Made by a program: the position numbers and the translations under genes. From assembly GCA_008932965.1 (NCBI GenBank), contig WBXG01000019.1, positions 1 to 28,040 on the forward strand: 28,040 nt of DNA, given 5' to 3'. Origin of the DNA: Verrucomicrobiota bacterium. Its GTDB lineage: Bacteria; Verrucomicrobiota; Verrucomicrobiia; Chthoniobacterales; UBA6821. Positions 3,022 to 20,700 of this stretch are shown piece by piece. The stretch's first letter is position 1, and every line of letters starts with the position of its first letter. The notes beneath the pieces were generated by a model. The model ran no database searches, had not been told where the DNA came from, and was given only the letters and a program-made list of their open reading frames with translations.

Positions 3022-3058
3022 CGAAGACAAATAACAAGTGAAGAGTAGAGTCAAATTA

Positions 3059-3197
3059 CTTTGAAATTACATGAAAGAAGGAAGCTTTTTCTAGGCAGAG
3101 CGAGGCCGAAGACCGAGCACTGTCCAAAGATAATATGAAGGGATGAGAACAAAGCTATTTTCTAAAAAGAACAAGGTGATTTTTTGTAATTTCAAAG
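3059..3197. repeat. Perfect 13-bp inverted repeat (CTTTGAAATTACA at 3059-3071, TGTAATTTCAAAG at 3185-3197) bracketing an intergenic spacer
   Basis: Read directly from the sequence. The arms are 113 nt apart and enclose the whole gap between the small CxxC ORF stop (3192) and the DUF420 start region. Confidence 0.5.
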
Positions 3198-3449
3198 AAA
3201 TTTGACTCTGCTCTGCAATCGATGTGCTTTATCAGCCTGCAAACAAGCAGAGCGAATCGCCCAGCAAAGAATACCCAGCAACAAAAAAACAAAGGCGAGC
3301 AGAAAGAGAACACTCCAGGAGAGGGCAATTCCAGCTTGAAGAGTTTGTGTTTCCTTAAATCCGTTGATAGAGGACATTTTACATCCTTCACAAGCACGTG
3401 CCAACGACGGCCAATAATAGAAAAGAGGGAAAAGATAAAATCGTTTCAT
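3192..3449 (-). CDS. Candidate small (85-aa) membrane protein: signal-like N-terminus, CxxC, one TM helix
   Basis: ATG at 3449 lies 8 nt after the SCO1 stop. The protein starts MKRFYLFPLFYYWPSLARA|CEGCK (AxA-type cleavage site) and then has the TM helix IALSWSVLFLLAFVFLLLGILCWAI. Two competing overlapping ORFs (3155-3397 on the minus strand, 3222-3467 on the plus strand) lack such features. Confidence 0.45.
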   Translation of the reverse strand: MKRFYLFPLFYYWPSLARACEGCKMSSINGFKETQTLQAGIALSWSVLFLLAFVFLLLGILCWAIRSACLQADKAHRLQSRVKFL

Positions 3450-3457
3450 GGAAAATA

Positions 3458-4165
3458 CTATTTTTGAGAAGGCTCACGCAAAAGATCCCCAACCTTCATC
3501 AATATTTTTTGGACAACCTCAGGATCATTCCCGTCACTATAGCTTCGAATCATACCGTTTCTATCGACCACCATCAAGCGCAGAGAGTGAGCAGGAGCTC
3601 CATCAGATTCTATGGCTAGTGGTTGCTTCATTCCCCCTTGAATAAAGGAGGTGATTTGAGGAAGTGGCCCGGTTAAAAAAATCCATTGTTGAGGATTTGC
3701 ATGAATATTGCGTGCATAGTCGGCAAGTACTTCAGGAGTATCGTAAGCGGGATCAACTGATACTGATATCAGTTTGACTTCATGATTTTTGGCAAGCTTC
3801 GAGGAAAGTTCCATCATACGAGAAGTCAACATAGGGCACGGCCCCACACAACGAGTGAAAATAAAATCGGCAATCCAGATTTTACCATGAAGGTCGGCCT
3901 TAGTCATCGTTTTCCCCTCTTGCGTTGTGAAAGAAAAATCGGGCACCTCCCCAATCGGAAGCTCCTTGATAGAATAACGTCGTTCAGAACGATGAAAACT
4001 TATAAAGGCTGCTCCTATGAGAAGACCAGTAATAAGAAAAATAAGAATCCACCAAGAGGCGGAAAGAGACTTAGGCTGAAAGGTATTCGAGTTCAAAGAT
4101 GGGGAAGAAAGGTAACAAAGCGGTAATCTTGTTTTATGCTTCAGTGGTTTTATTTTGAAGCTCAA
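3458..4165 (-). CDS. SCO1/SenC family copper chaperone / thiol-disulfide protein
   Basis: N-terminal TM anchor (WWILIFLITGLLIGAAFI), thioredoxin-fold CxxxC (FTRCVGPCP) and a downstream His (APAHSLRLMVVD). The start is uncertain. There is no ATG, the tracked start at 4219 is TTG, a TTG at 4165 forms a TTGA overlap with the ctaE stop, and another TTG lies at 4096. Confidence 0.8.
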   Translation of the reverse strand: MSFKIKPLKHKTRLPLCYLSSPSLNSNTFQPKSLSASWWILIFLITGLLIGAAFISFHRSERRYSIKELPIGEVPDFSFTTQEGKTMTKADLHGKIWIADFIFTRCVGPCPMLTSRMMELSSKLAKNHEVKLISVSVDPAYDTPEVLADYARNIHANPQQWIFLTGPLPQITSFIQGGMKQPLAIESDGAPAHSLRLMVVDRNGMIRSYSDGNDPEVVQKILMKVGDLLREPSQK

Positions 4166-4782
4166 ACAATATACAAAATCATATAGAGGAATACCCAGAC
4201 CACATCGACAAAATGCCAATAGAGCCCAACATTATCGAGTGCTACATGATGGTGCTGGGTAAAAGATTTGAAGAAACATTGACGTAAAAAGCACCAGAGT
4301 ATTAAGAGCACCCCAATAAGAACATGGGCCCCATGAAATCCTGTCATCACAAAAAAAGAGGATCCATAGACTCCACCAACATGAAACCAGAGCCCTTCGC
4401 GATAGAGGTGAGTCCATTCATAGGCCTGTCCACACAGGAATGTAGAACCTAAAAGAATGGTTAAGAGAAGCCAGCGACGCCCTGTCTTGCCACTCTTGAC
4501 TGAAACTTCCACCATATGAAAAGCGAGACTACTTGCGATCAGCACGAGCGTATTACATCCGGTTAACACCTTTGGCAAGGCCGGAAGATCTGGTGATGGA
4601 GGCCACTGAGCCGAGGCCAAACGCAACACAATATAGCCGCCTATAAGTCCCGCAAAGAGCATCGCCTCAGAAAGCAAAAAAATAATCATTCCAAATTTGC
4701 AGACATGGGGAGGAGCACCATGATGAGAGGATTCGGTGGAATGAACTTGATCAAAAGGAGTAGTAAGAGCGCTGGAGGACAT
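4162..4782 (-). CDS. ctaE: Cytochrome c oxidase subunit III
   Basis: Motifs FHGAHVLIGV and LYWHFVDVVWVFLY in a polytopic membrane protein. The tracked start at 4824 is TTG, and the ATG at 4782 (MSSSALTTPF..) is more likely. Confidence 0.85.
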   Translation of the reverse strand: MSSSALTTPFDQVHSTESSHHGAPPHVCKFGMIIFLLSEAMLFAGLIGGYIVLRLASAQWPPSPDLPALPKVLTGCNTLVLIASSLAFHMVEVSVKSGKTGRRWLLLTILLGSTFLCGQAYEWTHLYREGLWFHVGGVYGSSFFVMTGFHGAHVLIGVLLILWCFLRQCFFKSFTQHHHVALDNVGLYWHFVDVVWVFLYMILYIV

Positions 4783-4847
4783 AGGAACTTTCTTAAAAGA
4801 AAATGAGTTTAGACAAAAAAGCAAAAATGAAAAAGAGGTATTTATAT

Positions 4848-4876
4848 ATTTTAGAGCGAATAATCTCTCTTCTCAA
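4848..4876 (-). promoter_or_regulatory. Candidate sigma70-type internal promoter upstream of ctaE
   Basis: The minus strand reads TTGAGA, then 17 nt, then TAAAAT (-35 at 4876-4871, -10 at 4853-4848). It lies 60-90 nt upstream of the ctaE ATG. This rests on the sequence match only. Confidence 0.3.
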
Positions 4877-4923
4877 CCGCAGAATTTCGAGGCAAGCCAG
4901 ATATTTTATGAACTATAGTCTCA

Positions 4924-5040
4924 TTATTGGGTCAGCGCTGGTCCACGCAGCAGCATCAGCCAAAAAACAATTGCAGTGAGAACAATCGCAAAAAGAAAAA
5001 TACTAAGACCGATGAAATAACGTCTGCTTTTTGGCATCAT
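4924..5040 (-). CDS. Untracked 38-aa single-pass membrane ORF (MMPKSRRYFIGLSIFLFAIVLTAIVFWLMLLRGPALTQ)
   Basis: I translated the minus strand by hand. ATG at 5040-5038 overlaps the ctaB TGA (5039-5037) as ATGA. The basic N-terminus followed by a 21-residue hydrophobic helix gives positive-inside topology. The stop is TAA at 4926-4924. It sits between ctaB and ctaE. Confidence 0.5.
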   Translation of the reverse strand: MMPKSRRYFIGLSIFLFAIVLTAIVFWLMLLRGPALTQ

Positions 5041-5951
5041 AAAAATTTATTTTTACAAAATAAGAGAGCTAATAAAATTAACGGTAAATAAATGATAGAG
5101 GCAAAGAATAAAAATCGTGCTTTTTTTCGTGAACGCTGCATTACAAAATTGAGAGCTGCTAGTACAAAAACGAATCCAAGAATCAGAGCCAAGACAAAAT
5201 AGAGAGGTGTTGCCATTCCTATTACTCCTGGTAAAAGCGAAACGGCAAGCAACCCTAATGCATAGAGCAAAGCTTGACGTGAAGTCATCAACCCCTCCGG
5301 ATCATCCACACTCAGCATACGAAAACCAGCTGCTGCATAATCGTCACGATAAAGCCACGCGATAGCAAGAAAGTGGGGCATCTGCCAAAACCATAGAAGG
5401 AGAAAAAGAAGCACTCCCTCCAATCCTATTTCTCCTGTTGCAGCAGTCCATCCCAGAAGTGGAGGGATGGCTCCAGGAACAGCTCCTAGTAACGTATTGA
5501 GAGTGGTGTGACGCTTCATGGGAGTATATCCAAGAACATAAATAGCCACTGTTGCCAACCCTAATGAAGCTGACACAAGATTAACAAAAAAGAGAAGAAG
5601 GGCCGTTCCTATGAACACAGATAAGAGACCAAAGAGAAGGGCATCGCGCGGGTGTAACCGTTTTGCAGGAAGCGGGCGATCTTGAGTTCTCTTCATGAGA
5701 GCATCAAGTTCATGCTCCCACCATTGATTCAGAGCAGAAGCCCCACAAGCGCTCAAACCAGTTCCAAGGAGCGTTACCCCTAATAAAAAATAATCGATAG
5801 GCCCCGTCCATCCCAAAAGAAAACCAACTAACGTCGTAATAAGTACAAGTAGCGATAAACGAAGTTTGATGAGCTCCATGAGATCACTTCTTAGGGAGTG
5901 ATTTTTCTGACTACTCTCCTCACTTTTTTCACTCATGTTAGTTTGTTGCAT
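5037..5951 (-). CDS. ctaB: Protohaem IX farnesyltransferase (haem O synthase), UbiA family
   Basis: UbiA-type motif NQWWEHELDALMKRTQDRPLP and about 8-9 TM helices. The tracked start at 5990 is TTG, and ATG candidates lie at 5951 and 5936. Confidence 0.85.
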   Translation of the reverse strand: MQQTNMSEKSEESSQKNHSLRSDLMELIKLRLSLLVLITTLVGFLLGWTGPIDYFLLGVTLLGTGLSACGASALNQWWEHELDALMKRTQDRPLPAKRLHPRDALLFGLLSVFIGTALLLFFVNLVSASLGLATVAIYVLGYTPMKRHTTLNTLLGAVPGAIPPLLGWTAATGEIGLEGVLLFLLLWFWQMPHFLAIAWLYRDDYAAAGFRMLSVDDPEGLMTSRQALLYALGLLAVSLLPGVIGMATPLYFVLALILGFVFVLAALNFVMQRSRKKARFLFFASIIYLPLILLALLFCKNKFL

Positions 5952-6013
5952 TATCAAAATTGTTAGCAGTAATGATAGCCAACTCACCAATTAGAACAGC
6001 CTTATTTTTTTAT

Positions 6014-7051
6014 TTATCCTTCTTTTGCTGAAAAACTTTCGTTTTTTTGGCTTGAAATAAATAATCGAAACGTAAAAAGAAAGGCCGTTCCAAGAATCAA
6101 TGCTCCCAAAGCCATATGGGTTGTTGCCACATCAGCTGCCTTATTCGACCAAATCGTCCAAGCTCCGAGAACTACTTGGCATAAAAGCAATAGCCCCCAT
6201 AAGGTTGACCAACGACGCACCCAATGTCCTTTTGGAAAAAGTTCATAACTTCGAATAATTAAAAGGAGAACAATTCCAAAGAGTAGAATAGCTCCACCCC
6301 GATGAATCATTTGAAGAGAGATTTGCGTTGTTGTTGTCGGCATCATTCCTTGTGCAAGACGATCTTCATTGATGGTAGCAAGCGCCTCGTTTGAAAGTGA
6401 AGGAAGCAAGTGCCCATAGGCTGTGGGAAAATCAGGGATCGAGAGGCCGAGATGGCTATGGCGCATGGTAGCAGCAATAATTAATTGAAAATAAATTAAA
6501 ATGATTCCTGCAAGTGCAAGCCATTGGAGACGAGCTGCAGCACTGTCACCAAACCATGTCCCTTCAGAAAAACGACGACTTGTCATTGCGGAGAAAATTA
6601 CAAGAAGACCAAAGAAGGATTGAGCGAGGATTGCATGAAAGATCCCGATTTCATCCTTATAAAGAGTGACGCGAAGTCCCCCAAGGACTCCTTGTAAAAT
6701 AACGGCAAAGACTAGAACTGCGGCTACGTAACGGAGAGTAGAACGTTTTTCTAAAAAAAAAGTGAGCGCTGCCAAGATGACTGTGATCAAACCAATCCCT
6801 GATGCTAATAACCGGTGACTATGTTCATAAAAAACTCCTCCCACCCAGCGTGAAAGAGGAAAAAGAAACATATTGTATCCATAAGTTGTCGGCCAATCAG
6901 GAACTGACATTCCTACCCCTTTTGAAGTCACAAGGCCGCCACTGCAGAGAAGGATAAAGGTGAGGAAGGTGGTGGCAACTGCTAAAACATGTAGAAAAGA
7001 AGGCGGAGAAAAGTGAAAACGAGTAACTGCTGGGGAGGACGGTGTTAACAT
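6014..7051 (-). CDS. ctaA: Haem A synthase (COX15/CtaA family)
   Basis: 345-aa protein with about 8 TM helices and paired His-containing helices (EHSHRLLASG, FHAILAQ, IHRGGAILLF, THMALGALIL). ATG at 7051. It is adjacent to ctaB. Confidence 0.8.
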   Translation of the reverse strand: MLTPSSPAVTRFHFSPPSFLHVLAVATTFLTFILLCSGGLVTSKGVGMSVPDWPTTYGYNMFLFPLSRWVGGVFYEHSHRLLASGIGLITVILAALTFFLEKRSTLRYVAAVLVFAVILQGVLGGLRVTLYKDEIGIFHAILAQSFFGLLVIFSAMTSRRFSEGTWFGDSAAARLQWLALAGIILIYFQLIIAATMRHSHLGLSIPDFPTAYGHLLPSLSNEALATINEDRLAQGMMPTTTTQISLQMIHRGGAILLFGIVLLLIIRSYELFPKGHWVRRWSTLWGLLLLCQVVLGAWTIWSNKAADVATTHMALGALILGTAFLFTFRLFISSQKNESFSAKEG

Positions 7052-7151: not shown

Positions 7152-8936
7152 CTAGTGGATTTCAAGCTGAATATTTGTAGGGGCTTTTTCGTTTTGAGGA
7201 AGATAGTCCTTGTCCATTCCCGGAACACTATATTCGTAGGGACCGTTATAAACAATAGGAGTTATTGGAAAATTACCATGCCCAGGAGGGGAGGAAATAG
7301 TCCATTCTAGCGTTGTGGCAAGCCAAGGATTATCGGGAGCTTGAGGACCTTTGAAGATGCTGTAAAAAAGATTCACAAAAAAGACGAGTGTTGAAAGCCC
7401 TAGACCAAAAGCACCGATCGTACAAATGACATTGAGCGGCTGCAACTGGCGAAGATGTTCATAGACCGTAGGATCGGCAATACGACGCATCATTCCTCCA
7501 AGACCTAGATTGTGCATGGGGAAAAAGGTGAGGTTAAAAAACAGAAACGTTGCAATAAAATGAATCATTCCAAGTGTTGGATTCATCATGCGACTGAACA
7601 TTTTTGGAAACCAAAAATAGATTCCTGAAAAAATTGCGAAAAGACTTCCACCAAAGAGTACATAATGAAAGTGAGCTACAATAAAATAGGTATGGTGCAC
7701 AAAAAGATCGACCGGAGTTGAAGCCATAAAAATACCACTTAATCCTCCAATCACAAACATCGATACAAAGGCCAACGTAAAACACATTGGAACTGTGTAT
7801 TCAATCGATCCTTTCCAAACGGTTCCTAGCCAATTGAAGGTTTTGATTCCTGAAGGAACAGCAATCACCATTGTTGAGACAGCAAAAGTGGCGCTCAAAG
7901 TAAGATTCATTCCACTCACAAACATATGATGCCCCCACACAATAAATCCAAGAAGCCCAATAGAAGCCATTGCATAGACCATTGCCTTGTAGCCAAAAAC
8001 AGGCTTACGTGCAAAGACAGGCATGATTTCAGAAACCAGACCCATCGCAGGTAATATCATGATATAAACTTCCGGGTGTCCAAAGAACCAGAAAAGATGC
8101 TGCCATAGTAGGGGCTGTCCTCCCCCTGCTGGTTTAAAAAAACTTGTTCCAAAATTCAGATCGAAAAAGAGCATTGCTGCAGCTGCGGAGAGTACAGGGA
8201 CTGCAAAAATTAATAAAATAGAGGTGATTAAAAGAGACCAAACTGTGAGAGGAAGACGAAACATCGTCATTCCGGGAGCCCTCATAGTAATGATCGTCGT
8301 AATGTAGTTTGTAGCTCCAGCAATGGAGGCAAGTCCATTAATGAAAATTGCGATTCCCCAAAGGCTTTGACCCACTTGCGTTTGATTATAAATTGCAACG
8401 GCACTTAGTGGAGCATAAGCAGTCCAACCTGTTCCCGGAGCACCACCTGGTGCAAAGAAAGCAGCAAGGATAAAAAAACCAGAAATCACATAGAGCCAAT
8501 AACTCACTTCATTGAGCAAAGGAAAGGCCATATCTCCAGCCCCAATTTTTAATGGGATTAGATAGTTTCCAAATGCACCAATAAGCAGCGGCATGACGAC
8601 GAAAAAAACCATGATCGTCGCATGCATGGTCACAAGCATGTTGTAACCACCAGGAATAATCGTTCCATCATCGGACGCCAGAGTTGATGGAAGAAAACGA
8701 CCAATGAGAGGCACTGGATGATTTGGAAAACCAAGCTGGTATCGAACAGCCATAGCTAGGGCTCCACCTAGTAAGAAAAATAAAAAAGCTGTCCACAAAT
8801 ACTGAAGTCCAATCATCTTGTGATCATAGGACCAAAGATAATGCATGATTCCTTTTTTTTCGGAATGATGGTGAGTTTCTAAGGCAATGGGATGATCAAG
8901 GGCTAGGTCAATATCAGGGGCAACAGAAACATTCAT
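7152..8936 (-). CDS. ctaD: Cytochrome c oxidase subunit I, A1-type haem-copper oxidase with all ligands present
   Basis: Motifs MHATIMVFFVVMP (haem a His), WFFGHPEVYIMILP (CuB His, Glu, cross-link Tyr), VWGHHMFVSG (CuB HH) and VAHFHYVLFGG (haem a3 / haem a His). ATG at 8936. Confidence 0.95.
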   Translation of the reverse strand: MNVSVAPDIDLALDHPIALETHHHSEKKGIMHYLWSYDHKMIGLQYLWTAFLFFLLGGALAMAVRYQLGFPNHPVPLIGRFLPSTLASDDGTIIPGGYNMLVTMHATIMVFFVVMPLLIGAFGNYLIPLKIGAGDMAFPLLNEVSYWLYVISGFFILAAFFAPGGAPGTGWTAYAPLSAVAIYNQTQVGQSLWGIAIFINGLASIAGATNYITTIITMRAPGMTMFRLPLTVWSLLITSILLIFAVPVLSAAAAMLFFDLNFGTSFFKPAGGGQPLLWQHLFWFFGHPEVYIMILPAMGLVSEIMPVFARKPVFGYKAMVYAMASIGLLGFIVWGHHMFVSGMNLTLSATFAVSTMVIAVPSGIKTFNWLGTVWKGSIEYTVPMCFTLAFVSMFVIGGLSGIFMASTPVDLFVHHTYFIVAHFHYVLFGGSLFAIFSGIYFWFPKMFSRMMNPTLGMIHFIATFLFFNLTFFPMHNLGLGGMMRRIADPTVYEHLRQLQPLNVICTIGAFGLGLSTLVFFVNLFYSIFKGPQAPDNPWLATTLEWTISSPPGHGNFPITPIVYNGPYEYSVPGMDKDYLPQNEKAPTNIQLEIH

Positions 8937-8973: not shown

Positions 8974-9942
8974 TTATTGTGAGATAATAGAACTATTTCC
9001 AATAACAATATTGGGTTTCTTCACTTTCTCTGCATACCAGGTGTCATATTCCTTTTGGCTTACAACACGAATCGGAGCCTTCATATTATAGTGTCCCTTT
9101 CCGCAGAGCTGGCTGCATGCAAGCTGAAAATTCCCCATACGCAATGTCCTAAACCAAACCCATGCGATCGTTCTTCCAGGGACGGCATCTTGATATAAAC
9201 GAAACTCTGGAACATAAAAGGAGTGAATCACATCGCGTGATCGCAGAAAAATGTGAACAGGCTTACCAACAGGAATCACAAGTTCTGTAGTACTGAAATC
9301 TTCTTTTGCATGGGGGTCAGTAGGATCGATTCCAAATTTATTATCGAGGCTTATTTTTCGCACATCAGAACGCGCAAGAACTCCACTGGTTCCAGGATAG
9401 CGCATGTCCCAAGCAAATTGATAGCCCACAATTTCTACATTCAGAGCATCTGCTGGTGCGGGACGATGGATATTGTACCAGACTCGATTTCCATAAATAG
9501 CAAGTCCAAGGAAAATCAATGTAGGTAGCGTCGTCCAAATAATTTCTAATTTATTATTTCCATGACTGTAGTGTGCCTTCACACCCGGACGACGACGGTA
9601 TTTGACGAGATAATAAATATAAACAACTTGAACGGCTACAAAAACGGAGGTAGTTAACCAGAAAATAAAATTCAAAATTCCATCGGTTGCAAGACCATTG
9701 ACGGTGGCATTTTGAGGAGTCCAATAAATGTTACCAACACGTGATTCAGCCATCAGAGACATAGGCATGACCATAAGCGCCAATAAGCCTCTCCAGAATA
9801 GAGAAAATGGAGATCTAGAGCTAATATCACCGTGATCAGCTTTTATTTGTTGTTTACAGTTCGCAGAAGAACTAAGATTAGTATTGCACCATCGATGGAT
9901 GGTCATGTGCAGGTGATCGAGAATCTTAGAGGGTAATGACAT
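8974..9942 (-). CDS. ctaC: Cytochrome c oxidase subunit II (CuA) without a fused cytochrome c domain
   Basis: CuA site HSFYVPEF ... CSQLCGKGHYNM and two TM helices. There is no CxxCH anywhere in the ORF. About 45 aa precede the signal-like segment (LLALMVMPMSLMA), so the true start may be the ATG at 9906 rather than 9942. Confidence 0.9.
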   Translation of the reverse strand: MSLPSKILDHLHMTIHRWCNTNLSSSANCKQQIKADHGDISSRSPFSLFWRGLLALMVMPMSLMAESRVGNIYWTPQNATVNGLATDGILNFIFWLTTSVFVAVQVVYIYYLVKYRRRPGVKAHYSHGNNKLEIIWTTLPTLIFLGLAIYGNRVWYNIHRPAPADALNVEIVGYQFAWDMRYPGTSGVLARSDVRKISLDNKFGIDPTDPHAKEDFSTTELVIPVGKPVHIFLRSRDVIHSFYVPEFRLYQDAVPGRTIAWVWFRTLRMGNFQLACSQLCGKGHYNMKAPIRVVSQKEYDTWYAEKVKKPNIVIGNSSIISQ

Positions 9943-9993: not shown

Positions 9994-10704
9994 TTATTTG
10001 GCTGGTGGGGTTGGGTTGGTAGCAGCTCCAGAATAAAGCTCTCGAGGAATTGCTTGAAGTTCTGACATAGTCCAAGCTTCGGTGCGTGGAGGGGTGCTAG
10101 CACGTATTTTAGCAACAAATTCTGGAGAGATTGGAGATCCATTATTTCCCCATTCAGAGCGAACATAGGTCAATACCCCCGCAATTTGCTGATCAGTAAG
10201 TTGATTCCAGGGAGCCATAGCATTGTTGTAGGGCATATTTTTAACGATAATTGGACCCTGCAGACCGTAGAGAATGTTTTTAACAAGATGATTATCTCCA
10301 TGCCATCCTTGGGATAGGGCCCATTCGCTTCCCACTAGTGGAGGGTATTGTCCGGCAATACCAAGTCCTGTTTCTTGATGACAAACCACACAATTTTGAG
10401 CAAAAACTTTTTTTCCAACAACTCTTAGATCAATCGGAGCTGCTGCCCTGGAACCCCCTCCACCACTCCAGGCAACAAGTTCTGCATTATAAACATTGGA
10501 CTTAAAACCGCCGCTGTAGTAGGCGAGATAGAGGCCTGCCCAAAAAAAGAGAACCATCGAAATAGCGATTAACCAGAGCGGAATAGGTCGAAAAAATCCA
10601 CCATATTTTTCTGGATTGACAGAGAGAGGAGGACGATTGATTTCCACAAGATCTCTCTCGGGATTCAAGGCATCACTGGAATTTAGGTCATTTAATGGAT
10701 TCAC
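9994..10704 (-). CDS. Membrane-anchored monohaem cytochrome c (CcoP-like N-terminal anchor plus one class I haem domain)
   Basis: GTG start. The TM anchor IPLWLIAISMVLFFWAGLYLAYY resembles the CcoP N-terminus. It has a single CVVCHQ, with PPLVGSEW and MAPW downstream. Confidence 0.75.
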   Translation of the reverse strand: MNPLNDLNSSDALNPERDLVEINRPPLSVNPEKYGGFFRPIPLWLIAISMVLFFWAGLYLAYYSGGFKSNVYNAELVAWSGGGGSRAAAPIDLRVVGKKVFAQNCVVCHQETGLGIAGQYPPLVGSEWALSQGWHGDNHLVKNILYGLQGPIIVKNMPYNNAMAPWNQLTDQQIAGVLTYVRSEWGNNGSPISPEFVAKIRASTPPRTEAWTMSELQAIPRELYSGAATNPTPPAK

Positions 10705-10726
10705 GAAGGGCTATCGTTGGGATGAA

Positions 10727-11356
10727 TTAAGGAGCCGAGGGAGTTTCCGCAGAAACCTCAGGTAAGGTATAATCATGTTTGAGAGAAAGCAAATAGGCTA
10801 CTAAATCCTGGGCATCCTTCGTTGGAACAACCTCGTACCCTGGTGGAGGAGCATGTGGACCAGTGAGAGGAATTGCTTGTGCAGAGAGCTCTCCTTGGAT
10901 TTTTTGCATGTGAAAAAGGTAACGGTAGGAAGGCATGATCGATCCAGGGGTGACTTGATCTGGTTCATACAAATGATGATAGTACCAAATAGGATCGGTG
11001 AGACGACTTCCCACATTACTTAAATCAGGGCCCATGCGTCTCTTTCCAAGAAATGCAGTTTGATCGCGTAAATAATCAAGTGCTACTGAGGGACGCGTGC
11101 CCCATTTTCGATCAATATCGGAATGCGTCACATCTAACTGACGAATTTGCTGAGTATGACAGGTCATGCATCCACTAGCTGCATAAACACGAGCTCCTAA
11201 AATGGCTTGCCCACTATAATAGGGAGGTAGGATACCATCACTACCGGCAACCGATTTGAAATGTCCTAATTCCAGATAAGAGTAGACGACAACTCCGAGC
11301 CAGCTGGAAAAAAAGAGAAGTATAATAATTAAAAATAGAGATCTTAATCGATTCAT
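10727..11356 (-). CDS. ccoO: CcoO/FixO-like monohaem cytochrome c (cbb3 oxidase subunit II family)
   Basis: N-terminal TM helix, then GARVYAASGCMTCHTQQIR ... WGTRP ... LGKRRMGPDLSNVGSR ... HLYEPDQVTPGSIMPSY. This is collinear with the canonical CcoO signature (CxxCHSQxIR, GPDLxxVG, MPSY Met ligand). Confidence 0.8.
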   Translation of the reverse strand: MNRLRSLFLIIILLFFSSWLGVVVYSYLELGHFKSVAGSDGILPPYYSGQAILGARVYAASGCMTCHTQQIRQLDVTHSDIDRKWGTRPSVALDYLRDQTAFLGKRRMGPDLSNVGSRLTDPIWYYHHLYEPDQVTPGSIMPSYRYLFHMQKIQGELSAQAIPLTGPHAPPPGYEVVPTKDAQDLVAYLLSLKHDYTLPEVSAETPSAP

Positions 11357-11371
11357 AAGATGAAAAATAAT

Positions 11372-12823
11372 CTAGCGAGGCATGGGCAATTTTTCTTCGA
11401 TCATCTCCCAACGCATAGTCACAAGAAGACGCATGAAACAGAAGAAGCCAAGAAGGAGGAGGAACCAGGAAAGCGTAACAAGAACATTCCAAGGTAATGT
11501 GTAGGAGAGAATGTTAGTAAAAGTAATGACGGGGTCATTGAATGCAACTCCTTCAATCATTCCACCAAGAACCATAGAAGAAACCATGAGGCTTATTCCA
11601 ACAACGGATAGCCAAAAATGGAACTGAATCAGCTTGCTTGAGGACCAAGAAATCCCTGTCAACCTAGGAATAAAATAATAAAGCCCTCCGAAAAGTGTCA
11701 TTCCAAAAAATCCCAAGAAGAAGAGTAGGAAGGTCCCGCTTAAATAATCTGTAAAATTCAAAATGGCATTGAAACAAGGAAAACTACTTACTAAGGAGAG
11801 CACAGTTGCGATCACATATGAAATGATTCCTGCTGCAACAAAACGAAGTGCCGGGCTTTGATGAAGAATCAACTTTTCTGATTCTTGAAACATCCAATAA
11901 AAATTAATGACGACAGCAATCATTGGTAGCACGAGCATGATGTTAGTAACGACTCCAGCACTCATCATCCATGCAGGAATAGCCCCCCCAATAAGAGAGC
12001 TTAAGCCATTCCATCCAGAAAAGAGAAGTAACGAAAAAAATCCAAAGAGAGCCAAATAATAACTGTAAATTTTAACACCAGTAATTTTAGGAATGAGGTA
12101 GTAGATCGTTCCAAGAGCTATTGGAGTCAACCAAAACTGCATGAGAGAGCCTGCATACCAGCATTGAATGGGCCCTTGAGCGGAGCCTTGAATTTTTCCC
12201 CAAGTCAACATCAGATTAGCTGTTCCATAAATCCATGGAAAAGAGCAGAGAGCGGTGAGTAAGTACCACTCGGAAACATAGAGAGCTCGCTCTTTTCTCT
12301 CCTGAGTCAAGAGGAGTACCCAAAGGCCCATCAATAGAAAAGAGACGAAGAGTAAGAACGAAGCCCAATTAGGATATTCTAAAAAAATCACTGATGTTCC
12401 ATATCCAGCAAGTACTGCTAAGGAACCTAGGAAGAGGGCACTATTCCAGAGATGTGCTGCTGCAGTGAGTATTCTTATGTGAGAAAGAGGAGTGGCACTA
12501 AGTCGAGCCATTAGCCAAAGGATAAGAGCAAAACCAAGCGGAATCGCCCATCCATAGATAAAGAGATCATAGGCAACCGGAAAAAGACGCCCGTAGGTTA
12601 GGAAGCTGATTCCATCGAGAAAAGAAGGAAAGACGAGTTTAACAGCACAGATCGATATTAGGAACAATGCTAAGCTAAAGCTAAAAAAAGAGGATCTCAT
12701 CAAAAAGAGTATCGGGACACTCAGGGAGCGATCAATTTCAAGCCTCTTTGAAGCGTCCAATGGTAATGGCTCGCTGAGATAGGAGGCAGGCTCTATTTTT
12801 GAAAGTGTTGTTGCGTTATTCAT
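11372..12823 (-). CDS. CcoN-like (cbb3 subunit I homologue) membrane protein lacking all haem and CuB ligands; probably non-catalytic
   Basis: 483-aa protein with about 12 TM helices. YGRLFPVAYD compares with FGRLRPLHTN. QCWYAGSLMQFWLT..YYLIPK..IYSY compares with QWWYGHNAVGFFLT..YYFVPK..VYSY. WNGLSSLIGGAIPAW compares with WAGPHHLHYTALPDW. FTDYLSGTFLL compares with YTDWTIGHVHAG. Reference motifs are recalled from Pseudomonas stutzeri CcoN. Confidence 0.8.
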   Translation of the reverse strand: MNNATTLSKIEPASYLSEPLPLDASKRLEIDRSLSVPILFLMRSSFFSFSLALFLISICAVKLVFPSFLDGISFLTYGRLFPVAYDLFIYGWAIPLGFALILWLMARLSATPLSHIRILTAAAHLWNSALFLGSLAVLAGYGTSVIFLEYPNWASFLLFVSFLLMGLWVLLLTQERKERALYVSEWYLLTALCSFPWIYGTANLMLTWGKIQGSAQGPIQCWYAGSLMQFWLTPIALGTIYYLIPKITGVKIYSYYLALFGFFSLLLFSGWNGLSSLIGGAIPAWMMSAGVVTNIMLVLPMIAVVINFYWMFQESEKLILHQSPALRFVAAGIISYVIATVLSLVSSFPCFNAILNFTDYLSGTFLLFFLGFFGMTLFGGLYYFIPRLTGISWSSSKLIQFHFWLSVVGISLMVSSMVLGGMIEGVAFNDPVITFTNILSYTLPWNVLVTLSWFLLLLGFFCFMRLLVTMRWEMIEEKLPMPR

Positions 12824-12909: not shown

Positions 12910-13356
12910 CTAGGAATTGTTTTTTGGAGGTGGCACTGGTGTCGGTGTTGGCATTCCTGCAGCAACCGGAACAAGATCAATGGGAGCTATCGGATATGTT
13001 GCATGAGGTCTACGAGCGGTATCGTTGAGCCTCTTTATTTCCATCTCCATAGCTCGCTCTAAAGGAATATGGACGACTCCTTGATTCTGATCTGCCCAAC
13101 CATAGGTATTTAAAAGCTCCTCATTTGCTTTGTTTAAGGCAGCTAGATTTTTTACCCTTAGTAGAGCCCTCTCTTCATCATCGGTCATGGGCTCGGGATT
13201 CCATCGCATCATTACAATGATGGCTGCTACAAATAGGATGAGTAAGCAAGCAGCCATCCATAAACGACCCCATGGAAAAGGGCCTGAGGCACGAGAAGAT
13301 AGTGAGCTATCCTCGGCTAAGGAGTCTTGATGGATATGATCAGTACGTTGCTTCAT
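12910..13356 (-). CDS. Single-pass membrane protein at the end of the ACIII genes (possible ActG-type accessory subunit)
   Basis: 148-aa ORF with ATG at 13356. It has one TM helix (LWMAACLLILFVAAIIVMM), a conserved-looking GVVHIPLERAMEMEI segment and a Pro-rich tail. The assignment rests on position only. Confidence 0.45.
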   Translation of the reverse strand: MKQRTDHIHQDSLAEDSSLSSRASGPFPWGRLWMAACLLILFVAAIIVMMRWNPEPMTDDEERALLRVKNLAALNKANEELLNTYGWADQNQGVVHIPLERAMEMEIKRLNDTARRPHATYPIAPIDLVPVAAGMPTPTPVPPPKNNS

Positions 13357-13430: not shown

Positions 13431-14699
13431 TCATACAACAATATGAATAGAATCTTTGAGACGCGGATCGCGTAATGGCCACAGAGGAACATCTCCAAGA
13501 CGTTTTAAGAAAACGGCAGCAAGGGCTGTTCCTATAGCAATCAAGGAAAGAAGATCAAGGAAGCTGGGATGAAACCCTGCAGGGTGTATCATGGGAAGAA
13601 CGACAATATAGATGTCTAGAAGGTGCATGAGTAAAATCCAGCAAGCGATACCACAAAGATAGGCAGGACGTTTTTTAGGATTACGAAAGAGTAGCAAGAT
13701 GAATGGAACTAAAAAGTGCCCCAAAACAAGAATGATATTAAGAATGCACCAACTCTCGGTATTGCGACGTAAAAAATAGGTAGTCTCTTCAGGAATGTTG
13801 GCATACCAAATAAGCATATACTGGTCAAAGCCGATATAAGCCCAAAAGACAGTAAAGGCAGTCATGAGTTGACCTATTAATGCATAGTGACGTTCGGAAA
13901 CAATCCCCTCTAAATAACCGACAGAGCGAAGTGCTGTTATAATAAGAAGAATCACACAAAGAGAGCTTAATGCTGATCCTGCAAAAATGTAGACTCCCCA
14001 CATTGTTGAGACCCATTTGAAATCAAGACCCATGAGCCAATCGACAGCAGCAAATGTTAAACAGACCCCGAAGAAAGGAAGGCTTGCAAAGGTGATTTCA
14101 CGAGCCATCACGGTATATTTAGGATCCCCATCGTTATCTTGAGCTACAGAGAGCTTGCGCAGCCAAAGAGAGGCGAGACTAAAAAACAGAAAGTAAAAGG
14201 CTGCTCTCATCCAAAAAAATGGAAGATTGAGATAAGCCGCTTTTTCTAGTAAAGCATGACTACTTCCATGAGGAATCACCATCCACTTCCAGAGTAAGGG
14301 AGCAACAAAAATCAAAGGGATAAAAAAAAGAGAAAGCACAGGAAAAAGGGTTGCTACGTTTTCCATTTGACGACGTACCCCAACACTCCACTCCACGTCA
14401 ATTCCATGGTGCACTAAAATCCAAAAAAGACTCCCGATACAAATTGTTAAAAAAAAGGTAAAGGCGAAAAGCCACGAGAAAGCAAATTGCTTAGGATTGT
14501 TCATTCCAAGAGCGATGCACCCTAAAAGGGAGATAATAGAGATGGAAACTAATCCAAAAAATCGTCCTCCAACATGTTTATAATCAAAAAAACAATTACT
14601 CAGGGGCACCCCACTGTGTGCCGTGCTTTCTTGGGACTTGGACGCAGGGCCATCGTGCGTTATAGGCCGTTTGTCGTTATTATCAGAGTGTGAATTCAT
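13431..14699 (-). CDS. actF: ACIII subunit ActF (NrfD/PsrC-like polytopic membrane subunit)
   Basis: 422-aa protein with about 10 TM helices and an NrfD-like architecture. It holds the canonical position after actE. ATG at 14699. Confidence 0.8.
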   Translation of the reverse strand: MNSHSDNNDKRPITHDGPASKSQESTAHSGVPLSNCFFDYKHVGGRFFGLVSISIISLLGCIALGMNNPKQFAFSWLFAFTFFLTICIGSLFWILVHHGIDVEWSVGVRRQMENVATLFPVLSLFFIPLIFVAPLLWKWMVIPHGSSHALLEKAAYLNLPFFWMRAAFYFLFFSLASLWLRKLSVAQDNDGDPKYTVMAREITFASLPFFGVCLTFAAVDWLMGLDFKWVSTMWGVYIFAGSALSSLCVILLIITALRSVGYLEGIVSERHYALIGQLMTAFTVFWAYIGFDQYMLIWYANIPEETTYFLRRNTESWCILNIILVLGHFLVPFILLLFRNPKKRPAYLCGIACWILLMHLLDIYIVVLPMIHPAGFHPSFLDLLSLIAIGTALAAVFLKRLGDVPLWPLRDPRLKDSIHIVV

Positions 14700-14777: not shown

Positions 14778-15500
14778 TTACTTGGATTGAGCTGGTAATG
14801 GAAAGGAGTCAAGAGAGAATTGTTTTTGTGCAGCTACATCTTGTGGAAGATCCTTGATGGTGGCGTGCTGAGAAAGTTGCAATGCTCTTAAGTAACAAAT
14901 AATAGCCCAGCGATCTGGTACTTGAATCGTAGAGCCATAACCCATCATTGAATTTTTTCCCCAGGTAATGGTATTAAAAATTTCTCCATCGGCCATATCA
15001 CGAATCCGCTGCTGTTGCTGATTAGCAATACCGTTGAGGCCATATTTAGAAGTAATCCCATTTCCCATACCACTAGCACCATGACATACAGCACAGTTAA
15101 TATTATAGCGTTCTTGCCCACGCTTCATAACAGCAGCAGTTACTTCAAATGGAATTCCACTCCCCCATTGATTGCCCATACGACCAGTAGCGACATAGTC
15201 AGGAGAAGCAGAAAACTGAATATTCTGATACGGACCAAGATCCCCCATCGCATCTTGCGAGGAAGAAACATTTCCTTGAGGTGGTGCATACCCAACAGGA
15301 ACTGTTCCTTTCACATGGTGACGTGCAGAACGATCATCTGAATAAAAATCACTTTCTGACTGTGCCTTATACTTTGCTTGACGCACCATATCGGGAAACA
15401 ACTCTATAGGAGGTCGCTTTGACTTCCAACCACGCAAACCGGTAATTGAAACCAGTAATACTACGAGAAGGGTAAATCCAATAAAAAAATAGCGGAGCAT
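14778..15500 (-). CDS. actE: ACIII subunit ActE (membrane-anchored monohaem cytochrome c)
   Basis: N-terminal TM helix (LRYFFIGFTLLVVLLVSITGL) and a single CAVCHG. The tracked start at 15575 is TTG, and the ATG at 15500 lies directly before the TM helix. Confidence 0.8.
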   Translation of the reverse strand: MLRYFFIGFTLLVVLLVSITGLRGWKSKRPPIELFPDMVRQAKYKAQSESDFYSDDRSARHHVKGTVPVGYAPPQGNVSSSQDAMGDLGPYQNIQFSASPDYVATGRMGNQWGSGIPFEVTAAVMKRGQERYNINCAVCHGASGMGNGITSKYGLNGIANQQQQRIRDMADGEIFNTITWGKNSMMGYGSTIQVPDRWAIICYLRALQLSQHATIKDLPQDVAAQKQFSLDSFPLPAQSK

Positions 15501-15654
15501 GGCTAAATAAAGTAACGGGTAAGAGCTAACGGATAATAGATAAGTGAATTTTTTAGTGATAACTCTCCTAAACAATCCATTGCGCTAGGAGTTAGATATT
15601 TTGTTTTTTCAAAAAGTTGCATCATCGTATTTTATCAAGGTTGGAGTTTTGCTT

Positions 15655-16272
15655 TCACTCGTTCCCGGAATCCTCATGAATGGCAGTGAGATGATTTCCT
15701 CCCAGTGAGTTTAAAAAAGCGCTTGTTGCTTCAAATGAAAATTTCTGATCACTGGACTCAATTGCAATGAAAAATTTATCTTCTGTTACTTTATTGAAGC
15801 GATCCCAATTGAAATTAGGATGATTCCATCGTGGCAACCCATTGAGTGCAAGCATTCCAAAAGTTGCAGTCAATGCAGCAAACAAAATAGTGAGCTCAAA
15901 CATAATGGGAAAGAAAGCAGGTATGGTGAATAGATTGGTCGGTTTTCCAGCAACGACGAGTGGATAGAGAAAGGAGGAGGTTCCAAATTCCAGTGCAAGA
16001 GCCAACGTAAATCCTGTTAATCCCCCAATAAAAACTAAAGCACTCAGCCACGACTTTTGAAGTCCCATGGCTTCATCCATCCCATGAATGGGAAAAGGAG
16101 AATAGGTATCCCATTTTTTATAACCAGCATCACGCACTTTTTCTGCCGCATGATAAAGATCCCGGGCGCTTTCAAACTCTATACCAAGTCCAAAGAGGGG
16201 TGCAGTTGCAGGACCAGCAGTAGTAATGGTAGGGGCACTCGTATTCATCGTAACTTTAGTGATCTTCTCCAT
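15655..16272 (-). CDS. actD: ACIII subunit ActD (DUF3341-type)
   Basis: [45 protein letters not shown] followed by two TM helices, as in ActD. The start is ambiguous: TTG at 16311, ATG at 16272 (17-nt overlap with actC) or ATG at 16248. Confidence 0.8.
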
Positions 16273-17683
16273 AGTGAGGATTGGCTTCCGGAAGGACGGC
16301 CTTGACTTCAAACATACAAATCATCGGCAAAAAGCGAACAAAGAGAAGAAAGAGTGTTGTGAAAATTCCAAAGGTTCCAATGAATGTAAAGATATCAACC
16401 CATGTTGGGTGAAACATTCCCCATGAGGAGGGAAGAAAATCTCGAGCTAGTGTTGTTGCGATAATCACAAAGCGCTCGAACCACATTCCAGCATTCACAA
16501 ACATACAGATGATAAAAACGACGAAAATATTTTTACGACACCATGGAAACCAAAAGACTTGCGGTGAAATCACATTACAAAACATCATGCTCCAGTAGGC
16601 CCACCAATAGGGTCCAAAAGCACGATACCAAAAGGCAGCACGTTCATAAGGATTAGCTCCATACCAGGCCATAAAGAGCTCCATGAGGTAGGCGTAACCG
16701 ACAATGGATCCTGTGAGTAAAATAACTTTGCACATTTTATCAATATGCATCGGAGTGATCATATCGTGCAATTGAGGATAAATGGCCCGTGCAGGAAGCA
16801 TGATGGTAAGAACCATTGCAAAACCACCGAAAATCGCTCCCGCTACAAAATAAGGAGGAAAAATAGTGGCATGCCAGCCAGGAATGACTGAGGTTGCAAA
16901 GTCAAAGGAGACGACACTATGCACCGAGAGCACCAGAGGAGTCGAGAGACCTGCAAGAAGAAGATAGGCCATTTCGTAATGACGCCATTGACGGTTTCCT
17001 CCTCTCCAACCAAGAGCGAGAATTCCATAAAAGAATTTTTTTATCTTCGTAGTACAACGATCCCGAATCGTTGCTAGGTCAGGAATGAGCCCAGTATACC
17101 AAAAGAGAATGGAAACGGTAAAATAGGTAGAGACGGCAAAGACATCCCAAAGAAGAGGGCTTCTAAAATTTTGCCAAATTGCATTGGAATTAGGGACTGG
17201 TGCTAAAAAATAGACTTTCCAAACACGACCGACGTGGAAAAGAGGATAGATTCCGGCACAAACAACTGCAAAGAGGGTCATTGCTTCAGCAGCACGGTTG
17301 ATGGAAGTACGCCACTTTTGGCGTGTCAAAAAAAGAATTGCTGAAATTAATGTTCCTGCATGACCGATACCGATCCAGAAAACAAAATTGGTAATATCCC
17401 AGGCCCAAGCTACCGGGCTATTGTTTCCCCAAACACCAACACCTGTGGAGACAAGATAGCAGATAAGGAGTGGGGTGAGTAACGCAATGGGCGAAGTAAT
17501 GGCAATGGAGATATACCACCAGAGAGGTGTTTTGGATTCTACAATGGTGCTAACATAACTGCTAATCCAGCCCATGGTGCGCTTGTTGAGCACGAGGGGG
17601 GGGCGCTTGATACCATCTCTCTGTGCTAACAGGTGTGGTTGGTCAGGTGACTCTTGCGAGTTATGTTCAGTGTGTTGGTCCAT
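16256..17683 (-). CDS. actC: ACIII subunit ActC (NrfD/PsrC-like quinol-interacting membrane subunit)
   Basis: About 475-aa polytopic NrfD-like protein immediately after actB. ATG at 17683, one codon inside the tracked TTG. Confidence 0.85.
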
Positions 17684-17763
17684 CAAAAAAGTTGATTATT
17701 ATCCATTACAGGTAAGAGCTATCTTTACTAAAAAAAATTTATATTTTCTTTTCATGGTAGAAA

Positions 17764-20700
17764 TCACTTGGAATTTTCCATGATCTGAGGACTAACTACT
17801 GAAGTGGAGGCTTGTGGAGAAACCACCCCGTGTTGATCAAAATGGGTAGGTCCTACATCGGCATGTTCCCCAGCAGCTTCATGATGTACAGTGCCATTGG
17901 CTAAACCGACTTTATCTGCATCTGGCATTGATGCATTGGGGTTTTTGATACGAGCCAAATAAGTCACACGAGGACGTGCATTGAGATATTTTAGCATTGT
18001 ATAATCACGAGGGCTTTCTTTGCGTTGAGAAACAGTACTCTTTGCATCAGCAATATTTCCAAAGACAATTGACTCTGAAGGGCATGCTTGTTGACAGGCC
18101 GTTTTAAAAGGAGCGATTGGAGTTTTATGAGAATCACTAGCCCCAGCTTGAACCAAGCGTCCAATCTTTGCCTCTTCAATACGCTGCAAGCAGAAAGTAC
18201 ATTTTTCCATTACCCCTCGCATACGGACTGTGACATTAGGATTTTTTGACATCTTCAGGCTATCGGCCATTCCCTTAGGGGCAAGTGGGCCATAGTAAAG
18301 CTGATCAAGTGGGCGTAAATTATAATCAAAGAAATTAAAACGGCGTACTTTCCATGGACAGTTATTGGCACAGTAACGAGTCCCGATACAACGATTATAA
18401 GCCATGAGGTTAAGCCCATCTTCGCTATGAACAGTCGCATTAACAGGGCAGACTGTCTCACAAGGAGCATTGTCACAATGCTGACACATGATTGCCTGCG
18501 GCAACATCTCTGGATTTTTATCCGAACCATCGGGACTTGCAAACCAACGATCAATTCGAATCCAAGCCATATCACGGCCCCGACGCACTTGGTCTTTACC
18601 AACTACCGGGACATTATTTTCAGATTGGCATGCAAGCAAACAAGCATTGCAACCAATACAAGTATTGAGATCCACAGACATTCCCCACTGCTCCTGAGCA
18701 GTAAAAGGAGGACGGGTGTAGAGACCAATATTAGGAGGAATGTGACCATCCATTCCCATGGTCTGTGCAAACTTAGGATCCTCTTGGTAGCGTTCTATAG
18801 TTCCTTCACGTACAAGATCACGACCTTCCATGTTGTGATGTTCTTGTGTTTGTGCAAAAACATATTTTTTACCAGTTAATGGTTTGATGGAAACAGAGCT
18901 GGTGTAGCGAGGCGAAGCGGCAGTACGCAAAGGATAAACATTAAAGCCGACGTTACTGACAATATGAGAAATATTTTTACGTCCATAGCCTAGAGAAGCA
19001 CTCACCGAGCCATTAGCATGACCAGGGAGTGTTAAGATGGCAATATCGATAGAGTGTTGTCCATCACTGAGACGCACAAAATCGCCGTCGCTAAGATGAA
19101 GGCGCTTCGCATCTGCAGGACTCATAAGTAAGGCATTATCCCATGTCAACTTGGTGACAAAGTCAGGTGTCTCCTGCAACCACGCGTTGCCACTATAACG
19201 ACCATCATAAACGCTGGAGCTTGGGAGAAAGACACATTCAAAATCATCTTTTGAAAATGGCTGTTGAGGCTTTAATGTAGCAATCAGCCTTTGTACTGCA
19301 GGATCATTCCAGGAGGGTTGACTCACAGGCCATGCGCTATCTGACAAGAAACCTTGATGCAGATAGTTGTTCCAAGTGCCATCAGAATGATCCTGAGAAA
19401 AGGAATTAAAAGTTTCACGGATCAGCGCAGGCCCCTCAGCTCGCGGCTCACCGAGCAGGGCATGGAGGATTTCTAATTCAGAATAACCATTCCAGAGTGG
19501 TAAAATCATTGGCTGGACTGCACACAGCGTTCCATCAAGACTTCTCACGTCACCCCATGCCTCGAGGTAATGTGCTGCAGGCACATGCCACCGAGAAACT
19601 TTGGATGTCTCTTCTTCACATAACGAAAGATGAAGCGTTTCAGGAACTGATGCGATGAGATCGGTCCAGTTCTTTTCTGAGGATGCAGTATAAACTGGAT
19701 TTACCTGAAACAAAAGAAGCTTCTTAATAGAACCTGCTTCAATAGCCTCTGCAAGATCCTTTAAAGAAGACGTTGGTTTTATTCCAGTTGCTGCCACTTC
19801 AAGGGTCGTTCCAAAATTTCCTAAGGCAGCATTCATTCCAAGCACCATTAATTGAATGCCGATAGACTGCTCTCCCCCAGCAAGAACAAGGCTCTTCCCT
19901 TGATTTGCCAGCAAATCCTCCACAACTGCTGAGACCCATTTTTGAGATTCGCTGGAGAGTTCGATCGTGGGATTATTATGAATCCAGGTGGTGGCTAGTA
20001 ATTTTAGGGAGGCATTGTTGGTCTTGGTGCCAACAAGAAGAGACATTGCTGCTGTGAAAGCCCCCAATTGACGGGCTTGAAGCCTGAAACGATGATCAGC
20101 TAAGCCACCCGTAAGGCTGTAATGATTTTCTACAGCATAGAGACGATTCATCTGCTGGTCGGGATTGCGCCGGGCATAGAATCCATTGGCTAATCCAAAA
20201 CCAGCTACAGAAGGATTTAAAAAATCAGCATCCAGAGCAACAATAACATCTGCTTTCTTAAAGTGGTAGATCGGCCGTACCCCTTCTCCTAAAGCAGTAT
20301 CGCACGCCTGTTCGAAAAAGTGAGTAGATAGGGGTTCATACTCAACCCATGTTATTTTTGGAAATTCTTTTAATAAAGCATCACGCAAACGATCACGCGT
20401 TGGAGATCCTATACGCTCGACCACTATAGCCATTCCTTCACCTCCATTGCTCAAGGCTCCTTCACGAAGATGGGCAAGATATGAATCAAGCTTTGAGGAG
20501 GTTGCCTCTTTTCCATCCAAGGTAATGGCTTTGGAGCGATAGGGATTATAGAGGTCTAACAGCGAAGCCTGGGCAAAGGCATCGGTAGAGCCATTACTCA
20601 TGGGGTGGAGTGGATTCCCTTCTATTTTCGTCGGACGCCCATCAGAAGTCGTTACAATGAGTGGAATAGCACCTGCTGGAGCAGGCATCGTGGTTGCATA

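Follow-up and report, generated by a model that had tools for sequence, protein, structure and literature searches.

The window analysed here is a 28,040-nucleotide stretch of DNA from a Verrucomicrobiota bacterium, contig 19 of a 1.66-Mb assembly that is 97.9% complete. The open reading frame (ORF) listing of this window places on the minus strand a whole gene cluster for alternative complex III (ACIII), a trio of cco-type genes, and an aa3 oxidase. The trio, which is related to the CcoN, CcoO, and CcoP subunits of cbb3 oxidases, is the subject of this analysis. Its first gene (11372-12823, minus strand) encodes a CcoN homologue, P0001, of 483 amino acids with the 12-transmembrane-helix fold of haem-copper oxidase subunit I; none of its six His ligands is left, and the cross-link Tyr has been replaced too. 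It is followed by a gene for a CcoO-like monohaem cytochrome c with an N-terminal transmembrane anchor and the motifs CMTCH and MPSY (P0002, 209 amino acids; 10727-11356, minus strand) and, in the position of CcoP, by a gene with a GTG start for a membrane-anchored monohaem class I cytochrome c bearing CVVCH (P0003, 236 amino acids; 9994-10704, minus strand). The gaps between the genes are 15 nucleotides (CcoN/CcoO-like) and 22 nucleotides (CcoO-like/CcoP-like). An initial annotation of this DNA had described a ligand-less CcoN, two cytochromes c with intact haem sites, and these same spacings, and our alignments to solved chains and to liganded homologues bear that description out.

P0001 matches the COX1 profile at 138 bits and the ccoN profile TIGR00780 at 137.5 bits, below the equivalog cut-off of 583.15. 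Ligand columns were read from a HMMER alignment to solved cbb3 CcoN chains (8smr_E and 9g6b_A) and from alignments to ligand-bearing homologues, and the two agree. The haem b axial ligands H60 and H347 are replaced by A84 and L366, the haem b3 ligand H345 by T364, the CuB ligands H207, H257, and H258 by G225, S275, and S276, and the cross-link Y251 by S269. Four His are left in the protein, one of them the HFW His that is conserved in canonical CcoN too, and E149 is the retained Glu that in canonical cbb3 binds Ca2+ at the CcoN-CcoO interface. The fold appears to be intact, as an AlphaFold2 model built from a 73-sequence alignment has twelve long helices, with a predicted local distance difference test score of 90.7 and a predicted TM-score of 0.90. 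In a Foldseek search with this model, CcoN chains of cbb3 oxidases rank first (9g83_t, 6xkw_n, and 3mk7_A; TM-score 0.86-0.89, root-mean-square deviation 2.5-2.9 Å), and NorB and ba3 fall well behind. The frame is not a product of chance, since the homologue search returned some 60 representatives of protein clusters that are full-length and ligand-less, at 28-91% identity; the nearest named homologues belong to Chthoniobacterales, phylum Verrucomicrobiota. With haem b, haem b3, and CuB binding lost, P0001 is predicted not to reduce O2.

The haem c sites of the two partners are intact. P0002 matches FixO (PF02433) at 79 bits, above the gathering cut-off of 29.6, and has a transmembrane anchor, one CxxCH, and an axial Met; its score against the NCBIfam CcoO equivalog, 76.6 bits, is under the cut-off of 200.65. 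Its CMTCH and the Met of MPSY align to CcoO of 6xkw and 9g83. P0003, which matches the Pfam domains Cytochrom_C and Cytochrome_CBB3, consists of one transmembrane helix, a Gly-rich linker, and a single class I cytochrome c domain with one CVVCH. It is not a dihaem CcoP (29.8 bits to ccoP TIGR00782 against a cut-off of 179.95, and one CxxCH), and the CcoP of liganded relatives is likewise monohaem. In comparison with CcoNOP of known cbb3 oxidases (Pseudomonas stutzeri 3MK7/5DJQ, Rhodobacter capsulatus 6XKW, and P. aeruginosa 8SMR), the trio shares the fold of subunit I, a CcoO with transmembrane anchor, CxxCH, and axial Met, the N-O-P gene order, and the Ca2+-binding Glu, but it differs in lacking the ligands of haem b, haem b3, and CuB and the cross-link Tyr, in having a monohaem CcoP, and in being co-transcribed with ACIII.

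Comparison across a set of 35 loci of 19.5 kb from about 19 families shows that the state of CcoN is reflected in its neighbour. Both CcoO and CcoP retain CxxCH at all 35 loci, irrespective of the CcoN state, and the axial Met motif together with CxxCH is retained in both partners at most of them. The CcoO motif takes the form CxYCH at every locus with a liganded CcoN (17/17); its Tyr is lost at 15 of 19 ligand-less loci (the window has CMTCH) and is kept in family f3, the lineage that also keeps both haem b His ligands. This distribution suggests that the CcoO haem pocket co-evolves with the haem b acceptor in CcoN. Loss of the Tyr at most ligand-less loci and its persistence in f3 imply that the haem environment of CcoO changes once its natural acceptor disappears, and the motif shift thus suggests a CcoO haem that has been retuned rather than left inert.

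The trio is one part of a longer gene cluster. An ACIII operon is marked by a pentahaem ActA, a molybdopterin-like and FeS-containing ActB, NrfD-like ActC and ActF, ActD, and a monohaem ActE. All of these lie in canonical order on the minus strand between 13431 and 21854, with Pfam matches to ActD (200 bits), NrfD, Fer4, and cytochrome c7: actA (21195-21854, five CxxCH), actB (17764-21000), actC (16256-17686), actD (15655-16311), actE (14778-15575, one CxxCH), and actF (13431-14699). Between actF and ccoN there is a gene for a 148-amino-acid protein with a single transmembrane helix and no Pfam match (12910-13356, minus strand); its position is kept in many Verrucomicrobiae including Methylacidiphilum (L135:2116-2487), and it could be a so far unrecognised accessory subunit of ACIII or cbb3. 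Beyond the trio, still on the minus strand, come coxB (8974-9942) and coxA (7152-8936) for subunits II and I of the aa3 oxidase, and then a block of oxidase biogenesis and remaining subunit genes (2590-7051) whose order is the same in relatives: ctaA (6014-7051), ctaB (5037-5990), coxC (4162-4824), SCO1 (3458-4219), and DUF420 (2590-3054). A small CxxC ORF, listed between SCO1 and DUF420, and DUF6572 also lie downstream of the trio.

The genome offers few other partners for these cytochromes. CoxB carries a CuA motif (HSFYV ... CSQLCGKGHYNM), and inspection of its sequence finds no CxxCH and no fused cytochrome c domain, as the initial annotation had noted. CoxA is the sole ligand-bearing haem-copper oxidase subunit I in the assembly. 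A canonical cbb3 operon elsewhere, which could have supplied these CcoO and CcoP proteins with a working CcoN, was looked for, and a search of the 97.9%-complete assembly found no second CcoN, so that one of the refuting conditions named in the initial annotation falls away; nor does ccoG (TIGR02745) have a match there, ccoH, ccoI, and ccoS not having been searched for. The oxidases of this organism are the aa3 enzyme and one cytochrome bd only. A CxxCH scan of all ORFs in the assembly gave four credible c-type cytochromes, namely ActA with five haems, ActE, and the CcoO-like and CcoP-like proteins, and the remaining matches, for example in DnaJ, NrdR, and ligase, resemble cytoplasmic zinc-ribbon-type proteins. 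In the same scan no soluble cytochrome c was found, nor any CxxCH-bearing cytochrome-c-dependent enzyme; the neighbouring aa3 oxidase is the only cytochrome-c-oxidising enzyme found. All four c-type cytochromes of the 1.66-Mb genome appear to be encoded in this single operon, and yet a System II cytochrome c maturation gene (C3:45311-45898) has been kept.

As ActA, ActE, and the trio proteins are the only credible c-type cytochromes, they must lie on, or beside, the path from ACIII to CuA. ActA is here a plain pentahaem protein, without the extra mobile haem domain seen in ActA of Flavobacterium johnsoniae, which leaves ActE, the CcoO-like protein, or the CcoP-like protein as the last donor to CuA. 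The same inventory bears on the idea that the c haems form an electron branch or sink, taking ACIII electrons to an acceptor other than aa3 or buffering them. The extra CcoP haem of Neisseria cbb3 is known to divert electrons, lineages that have several oxidases keep the trio, and electrons in ACIII have been suggested to part ways at ActA/ActE (PMC8552683). In a genome whose sole haem-copper oxidase is aa3, and in which the scan revealed no alternative recipient, we nevertheless regard such a branch as improbable.

Relatives of P0001 are present in 122 of 401 Verrucomicrobiota genomes, with about 95 strong matches in the same class. The order ActA-B-C-D-E-F-(small protein)-CcoN-CcoO-CcoP is found at 33 of the 35 loci, from which we conclude that the trio is the standard 3' end of the ACIII operon in class Verrucomicrobiae; genes for an A-type oxidase lie downstream of it in some families only. 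The view of the initial annotation that the trio had been inserted between ACIII and aa3 does not survive this comparison, since aa3 comes next in some lineages only and since CcoN of sister lineages with the same gene order (L034) is still fully liganded. The fixed position matches a statement in the literature: according to a passage of PMC8498564 that cites Refojo et al. 2010, a C-type oxidase adjoins ACIII in verrucomicrobial methanotrophs and Opitutaceae. Some genomes have in addition a second ACIII-like set, in which ActD, ActE, and ActF were detected, with a caa3-type oxidase (CoxB with CxxCH) directly behind it and no cco trio (L100, G351:C25; L109, G060:C1; L118, G252:C1).

To see which oxidase accompanies the trio, we searched 52 genomes (20 with ligand-less and 32 with liganded CcoN) with PF00115 and fetched 40 A-type oxidase loci. 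An A-type oxidase is present in all 20 ligand-less genomes and absent by this search from 9 of the 32 liganded ones, and in five liganded genomes the ACIII-linked CcoN is the sole haem-copper oxidase. Operons of the caa3 type, in which CoxB has CuA and CxxCH, occur in families f7, f8, f9, f13, f17, and f18 whatever the state of CcoN, and at the loci examined they never adjoin the trio. By contrast, an aa3 operon whose CoxB lacks the c domain stands directly behind CcoP in seven of ten lineages (f1, f2, f5, f6 with coxB only, f10, f12, and f14), and does so in all metagenome relatives whose sequence extends far enough to tell; families f3, f19, and f21 have it elsewhere in the genome. This usual adjacency supports a functional link between the trio cytochromes and aa3. 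A strict link between ligand loss and an aa3 without c domain was not found, given that ligand-less CcoN occurs with caa3 and liganded CcoN occurs beside the c-domain-less enzyme. The co-occurrence expected from the initial annotation therefore holds as a trend and fails as a rule. In one genome, G243, the aa3 operon is split, with coxB directly behind a ligand-less trio (L035, G243:C26) and coxA-ctaA-ctaB-coxC-SCO1 on another contig (L093, G243:C17), so that the subunit II gene is left beside the trio.

Loss of the ligands has not been a single event. Among 33 ACIII-linked CcoN proteins, 15 keep all seven residues and 18 have lost all or most of them, and the replacement residues vary from lineage to lineage, as do the residual ligands, with f3 keeping both haem b His and f10 and f14 only H60. 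A tree of ActB, ActC, and ActF (2071 columns) follows taxonomy and requires at least seven state changes, and a tree of CcoO and CcoP likewise follows taxonomy and requires at least five. A single clade of all ligand-less loci is rejected on both data sets by the approximately unbiased (AU) test (p ~1e-45 for ActB+ActC+ActF; p 4e-52 for CcoO+CcoP). Since regain of seven specific residues is implausible, we read the state changes as independent losses from a liganded ancestor, and on these trees there are at least five to seven separate ligand losses in Verrucomicrobiae. The tree of CcoN itself places most ligand-less proteins in one long-branched, weakly supported group (Shimodaira-Hasegawa-like approximate likelihood ratio test 88; three changes). 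The single origin that this tree would offer was ruled out, as the CcoN data do not reject keeping family f9 together (AU p 0.062), the neighbouring genes reject a single clade, the rows in question are long-branched, and the residual ligands differ among lineages.

Both states occur within the window's own order. In families f1, to which the window genome belongs, and f6 the ligands are lost; at L034, of family f2, the ACIII-cco-aa3 arrangement is that of the window, down to the aa3 cluster behind the trio, and CcoN is fully liganded. Liganded, ACIII-linked cbb3 genes of this kind (L034, L036, and L039) share with the window the operon, the three proteins at 35-40% identity, and the monohaem CcoP, and differ from it in having all seven catalytic residues and CxYCH in CcoO. 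As the ACIII-linked CcoN is the sole haem-copper oxidase in five genomes, the liganded ones are presumably real oxidases; they correspond to the "C-type oxidase next to ACIII" for which PMC8498564 cites Refojo et al. 2010. Full-text literature searches, which covered Refojo et al. 2010 only via citations, found no paper noting ligand loss in CcoN.

Whether the stripped protein is maintained can be judged from its rate of change. By the Nei-Gojobori method on close locus pairs, the ligand-less state of the metagenome pairs having been checked, the ratio of nonsynonymous to synonymous substitution rates (dN/dS) of ligand-less CcoN is 0.11 for L035/L007 (dS 0.08), 0.19 for L072/L073 (dS 0.11), and 0.12 for L084/L085 (dS 0.19). 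Three liganded pairs of family f8 give 0.02-0.06, ratios that are rougher because dS, at 1.28-1.35, is near saturation. CcoO and CcoP have values similar to those of CcoN in these pairs. Ligand-less CcoN is under purifying selection, with a constraint that is relaxed several-fold and far from neutral. That the gene is a decaying, functionless relic heading for deletion is, to us, scarcely credible. To be sure, no gene of the cluster evolves faster than CcoN (within the genus, 52% identity versus 84-92% for CoxA and ActC), and one relative, G012, has an in-frame stop. The dN/dS values already contradict neutrality, though, and a full-length, open frame persists in some 60 cluster representatives, in all of the at least five independent ligand-less lineages, and in a streamlined 1.66-Mb genome.

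The pattern of conservation indicates what is being maintained. Relative to liganded proteins, per-column conservation in the ligand-less ones is highest in periplasmic loops (ratio 0.79) and lowest in cytoplasmic loops (0.59). Positions invariant in liganded CcoN and decayed in ligand-less CcoN comprise the ligands, the GRLRP-motif Arg, W221, E146, and R449, and on the cytoplasmic side H180, H308, H309, E392, and H460; this cytoplasmic-side decay we take to be a possible loss of proton-path chemistry. Read from the alignments, the pattern fits a protein that has kept its shape and outer docking face and lost cofactor binding. One column has moved in the opposite direction: Y90 of P0001, in the second transmembrane helix (window ~12554-12556) and six residues past the lost H60 site, is Tyr in 43 of 48 ligand-less proteins, and the top residue at this column among liganded proteins is Leu (19/37). 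Y90 may be a convergent, pocket-filling change.

Such columns, more conserved in ligand-less than in liganded proteins, are few, and they could also be taken as a sign that CcoN is still a redox enzyme, one with haem or metal bound by non-canonical ligands and with another reaction to catalyse, as could the ligand subsets kept in f3, f10, and f14. With A, G, S, S, S, T, and L at the ligand positions and four His in all, P0001 is a poor candidate for this, and the replacements differ among lineages, the propionate-binding Arg and the conserved cytoplasmic-side residues have decayed as well, and ccoG was not found in the genome. We therefore hold continued catalysis to be highly unlikely.

The explanation that we favour, to which we would give about an even chance, is that the trio descends from an O2-reducing cbb3 oxidase and is now a CcoN shell with a c-haem relay or docking adaptor from ACIII to aa3. 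The ancestor would have been an oxygen-reducing cbb3 oxidase co-transcribed with ACIII throughout class Verrucomicrobiae, whose CcoN in this lineage would have lost haem b, haem b3, and CuB binding and survived as a folded platform of 12 membrane helices, bearing the CcoO haem c domain and anchoring a tethered monohaem cytochrome c. ACIII would oxidise menaquinol, and electrons would run via ActA and ActE to the c haems of the trio, a membrane-fixed relay or docking adaptor with CcoO in a fixed place and CcoP tethered by its flexible linker. These haems would pass electrons to CuA of the downstream-encoded aa3, probably within one assembly, which we propose from operon linkage and the cytochrome inventory. 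The shell would serve to place the haems and perhaps to connect ACIII with aa3. What the shell most likely does is hold cytochromes c between ACIII and aa3, not reduce O2; we infer both the passage of electrons via CcoO and CcoP to aa3 and the existence of a joint complex. A scaffolded relay or adaptor is favoured because the genome has only four c-type cytochromes, its sole haem-copper oxidase is an aa3 without c domain, and there is no canonical CcoN or ccoG. In architecture, P0003 can be likened to cytochrome cy in the bc1-cbb3 supercomplex of R. capsulatus (6XKW), a tethered shuttle inside a III-IV assembly that likewise has a transmembrane anchor, a flexible linker, and a class I domain, though in another protein family context.

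A known parallel for such an assembly is the ACIII-aa3 supercomplex of F. johnsoniae, reportedly described by Sun et al. in 2018 and treated by Lorencik et al. 2021 (PMC8552683). There, as proposed here, ACIII feeds an aa3 oxidase with a c-domain-less subunit II and without a soluble carrier, but the proposed last donor is the extra mobile haem domain of ActA (PMC8552683), whereas the window encodes a plain pentahaem ActA and, between the two complexes, a CcoN shell with two further membrane-bound cytochromes c. The F. johnsoniae system also weighs against a relay through the trio, as do several of our own observations. In that organism aa3 takes its electrons straight from ACIII and ActE can be dispensed with (PMC8552683), so that ActE alone could be the donor to CuA here. 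Genomes whose A-type oxidase is a distant caa3 have ligand-less CcoN as well, so that a relay specific to aa3 cannot be the general reason for its retention. CxxCH could be conserved only because a c-type domain needs it to fold. That the gene can disappear is shown by an Opitutaceae-like genome with an in-frame TAA stop in its ACIII-linked CcoN homologue (G012:C26:163873-165231), the only outright pseudogene among the ~95 strong matches.

Several of these points lend themselves to the main rival, a purely structural role, by which the trio would be a set of supernumerary subunits needed only to assemble or stabilise ACIII or its supercomplex. Electrons would then pass straight from ActA/ActE to CuA, and the haems would serve folding only. 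The position of the trio behind actF is fixed whatever oxidase is present, it is retained in genomes with distant caa3 oxidases, and ACIII of F. johnsoniae needs no extra cytochromes to feed aa3 (PMC8552683). Less easily reconciled with structural subunits are the axial Met motif and CxxCH kept in both partners at most loci, the systematic change of the CcoO haem motif after loss of haem in CcoN, which suggests a retuned haem, and the want in ActA of the mobile sixth-haem domain that F. johnsoniae ActA has. We consider a purely structural trio unlikely, if a serious contender, and retain the scaffolded relay or adaptor as our preferred reading.

The consequences reach a cultured methanotroph. 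In Methylacidiphilum fumariolicum SolV, the seven catalytic positions of the ACIII-adjacent CcoN (L135:2501-3946, NZ_CAHT01000078.1) are occupied by S, E, S, S, H, F, and V, so that six of the catalytic residues are lost, and no canonical ccoN was found in the SolV genome, where the best TIGR00780 match reaches 28 bits (cut-off 583). A cbb3-type terminal oxidase is still attributed to Methylacidiphilum methanotrophs in reviews and in a 2023 paper (PMC8498564, PMC10205796). Judged by its catalytic positions, the "cbb3 oxidase" reported for SolV is of the ligand-less kind. Genomes annotated as having a cbb3 oxidase with high O2 affinity may be without that activity, and oxidase inventories used in ecophysiology need correcting.

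Subunit I of haem-copper oxidases is the textbook catalytic core. In the literature searched, we found no earlier report of a subunit I stripped of every cofactor yet maintained by selection, and in these bacteria the stripping has happened five times or more. For the cbb3 body this suggests a role other than catalysis within ACIII respiratory assemblies. If this is true, at least five independent conversions to a pseudo-enzyme would imply that the cbb3 body has a second job in an ACIII megacomplex, as a cytochrome c wire and docking platform for whichever terminal oxidase is present, and that several verrucomicrobial "cbb3 oxidases," SolV's included, reduce no oxygen, a view that we put forward tentatively and at somewhat less than even chances. 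Cultured strains such as SolV make the non-catalytic role testable, and the lineages described here offer natural replicates of the decay of a redox enzyme once a paralogous pathway takes over.

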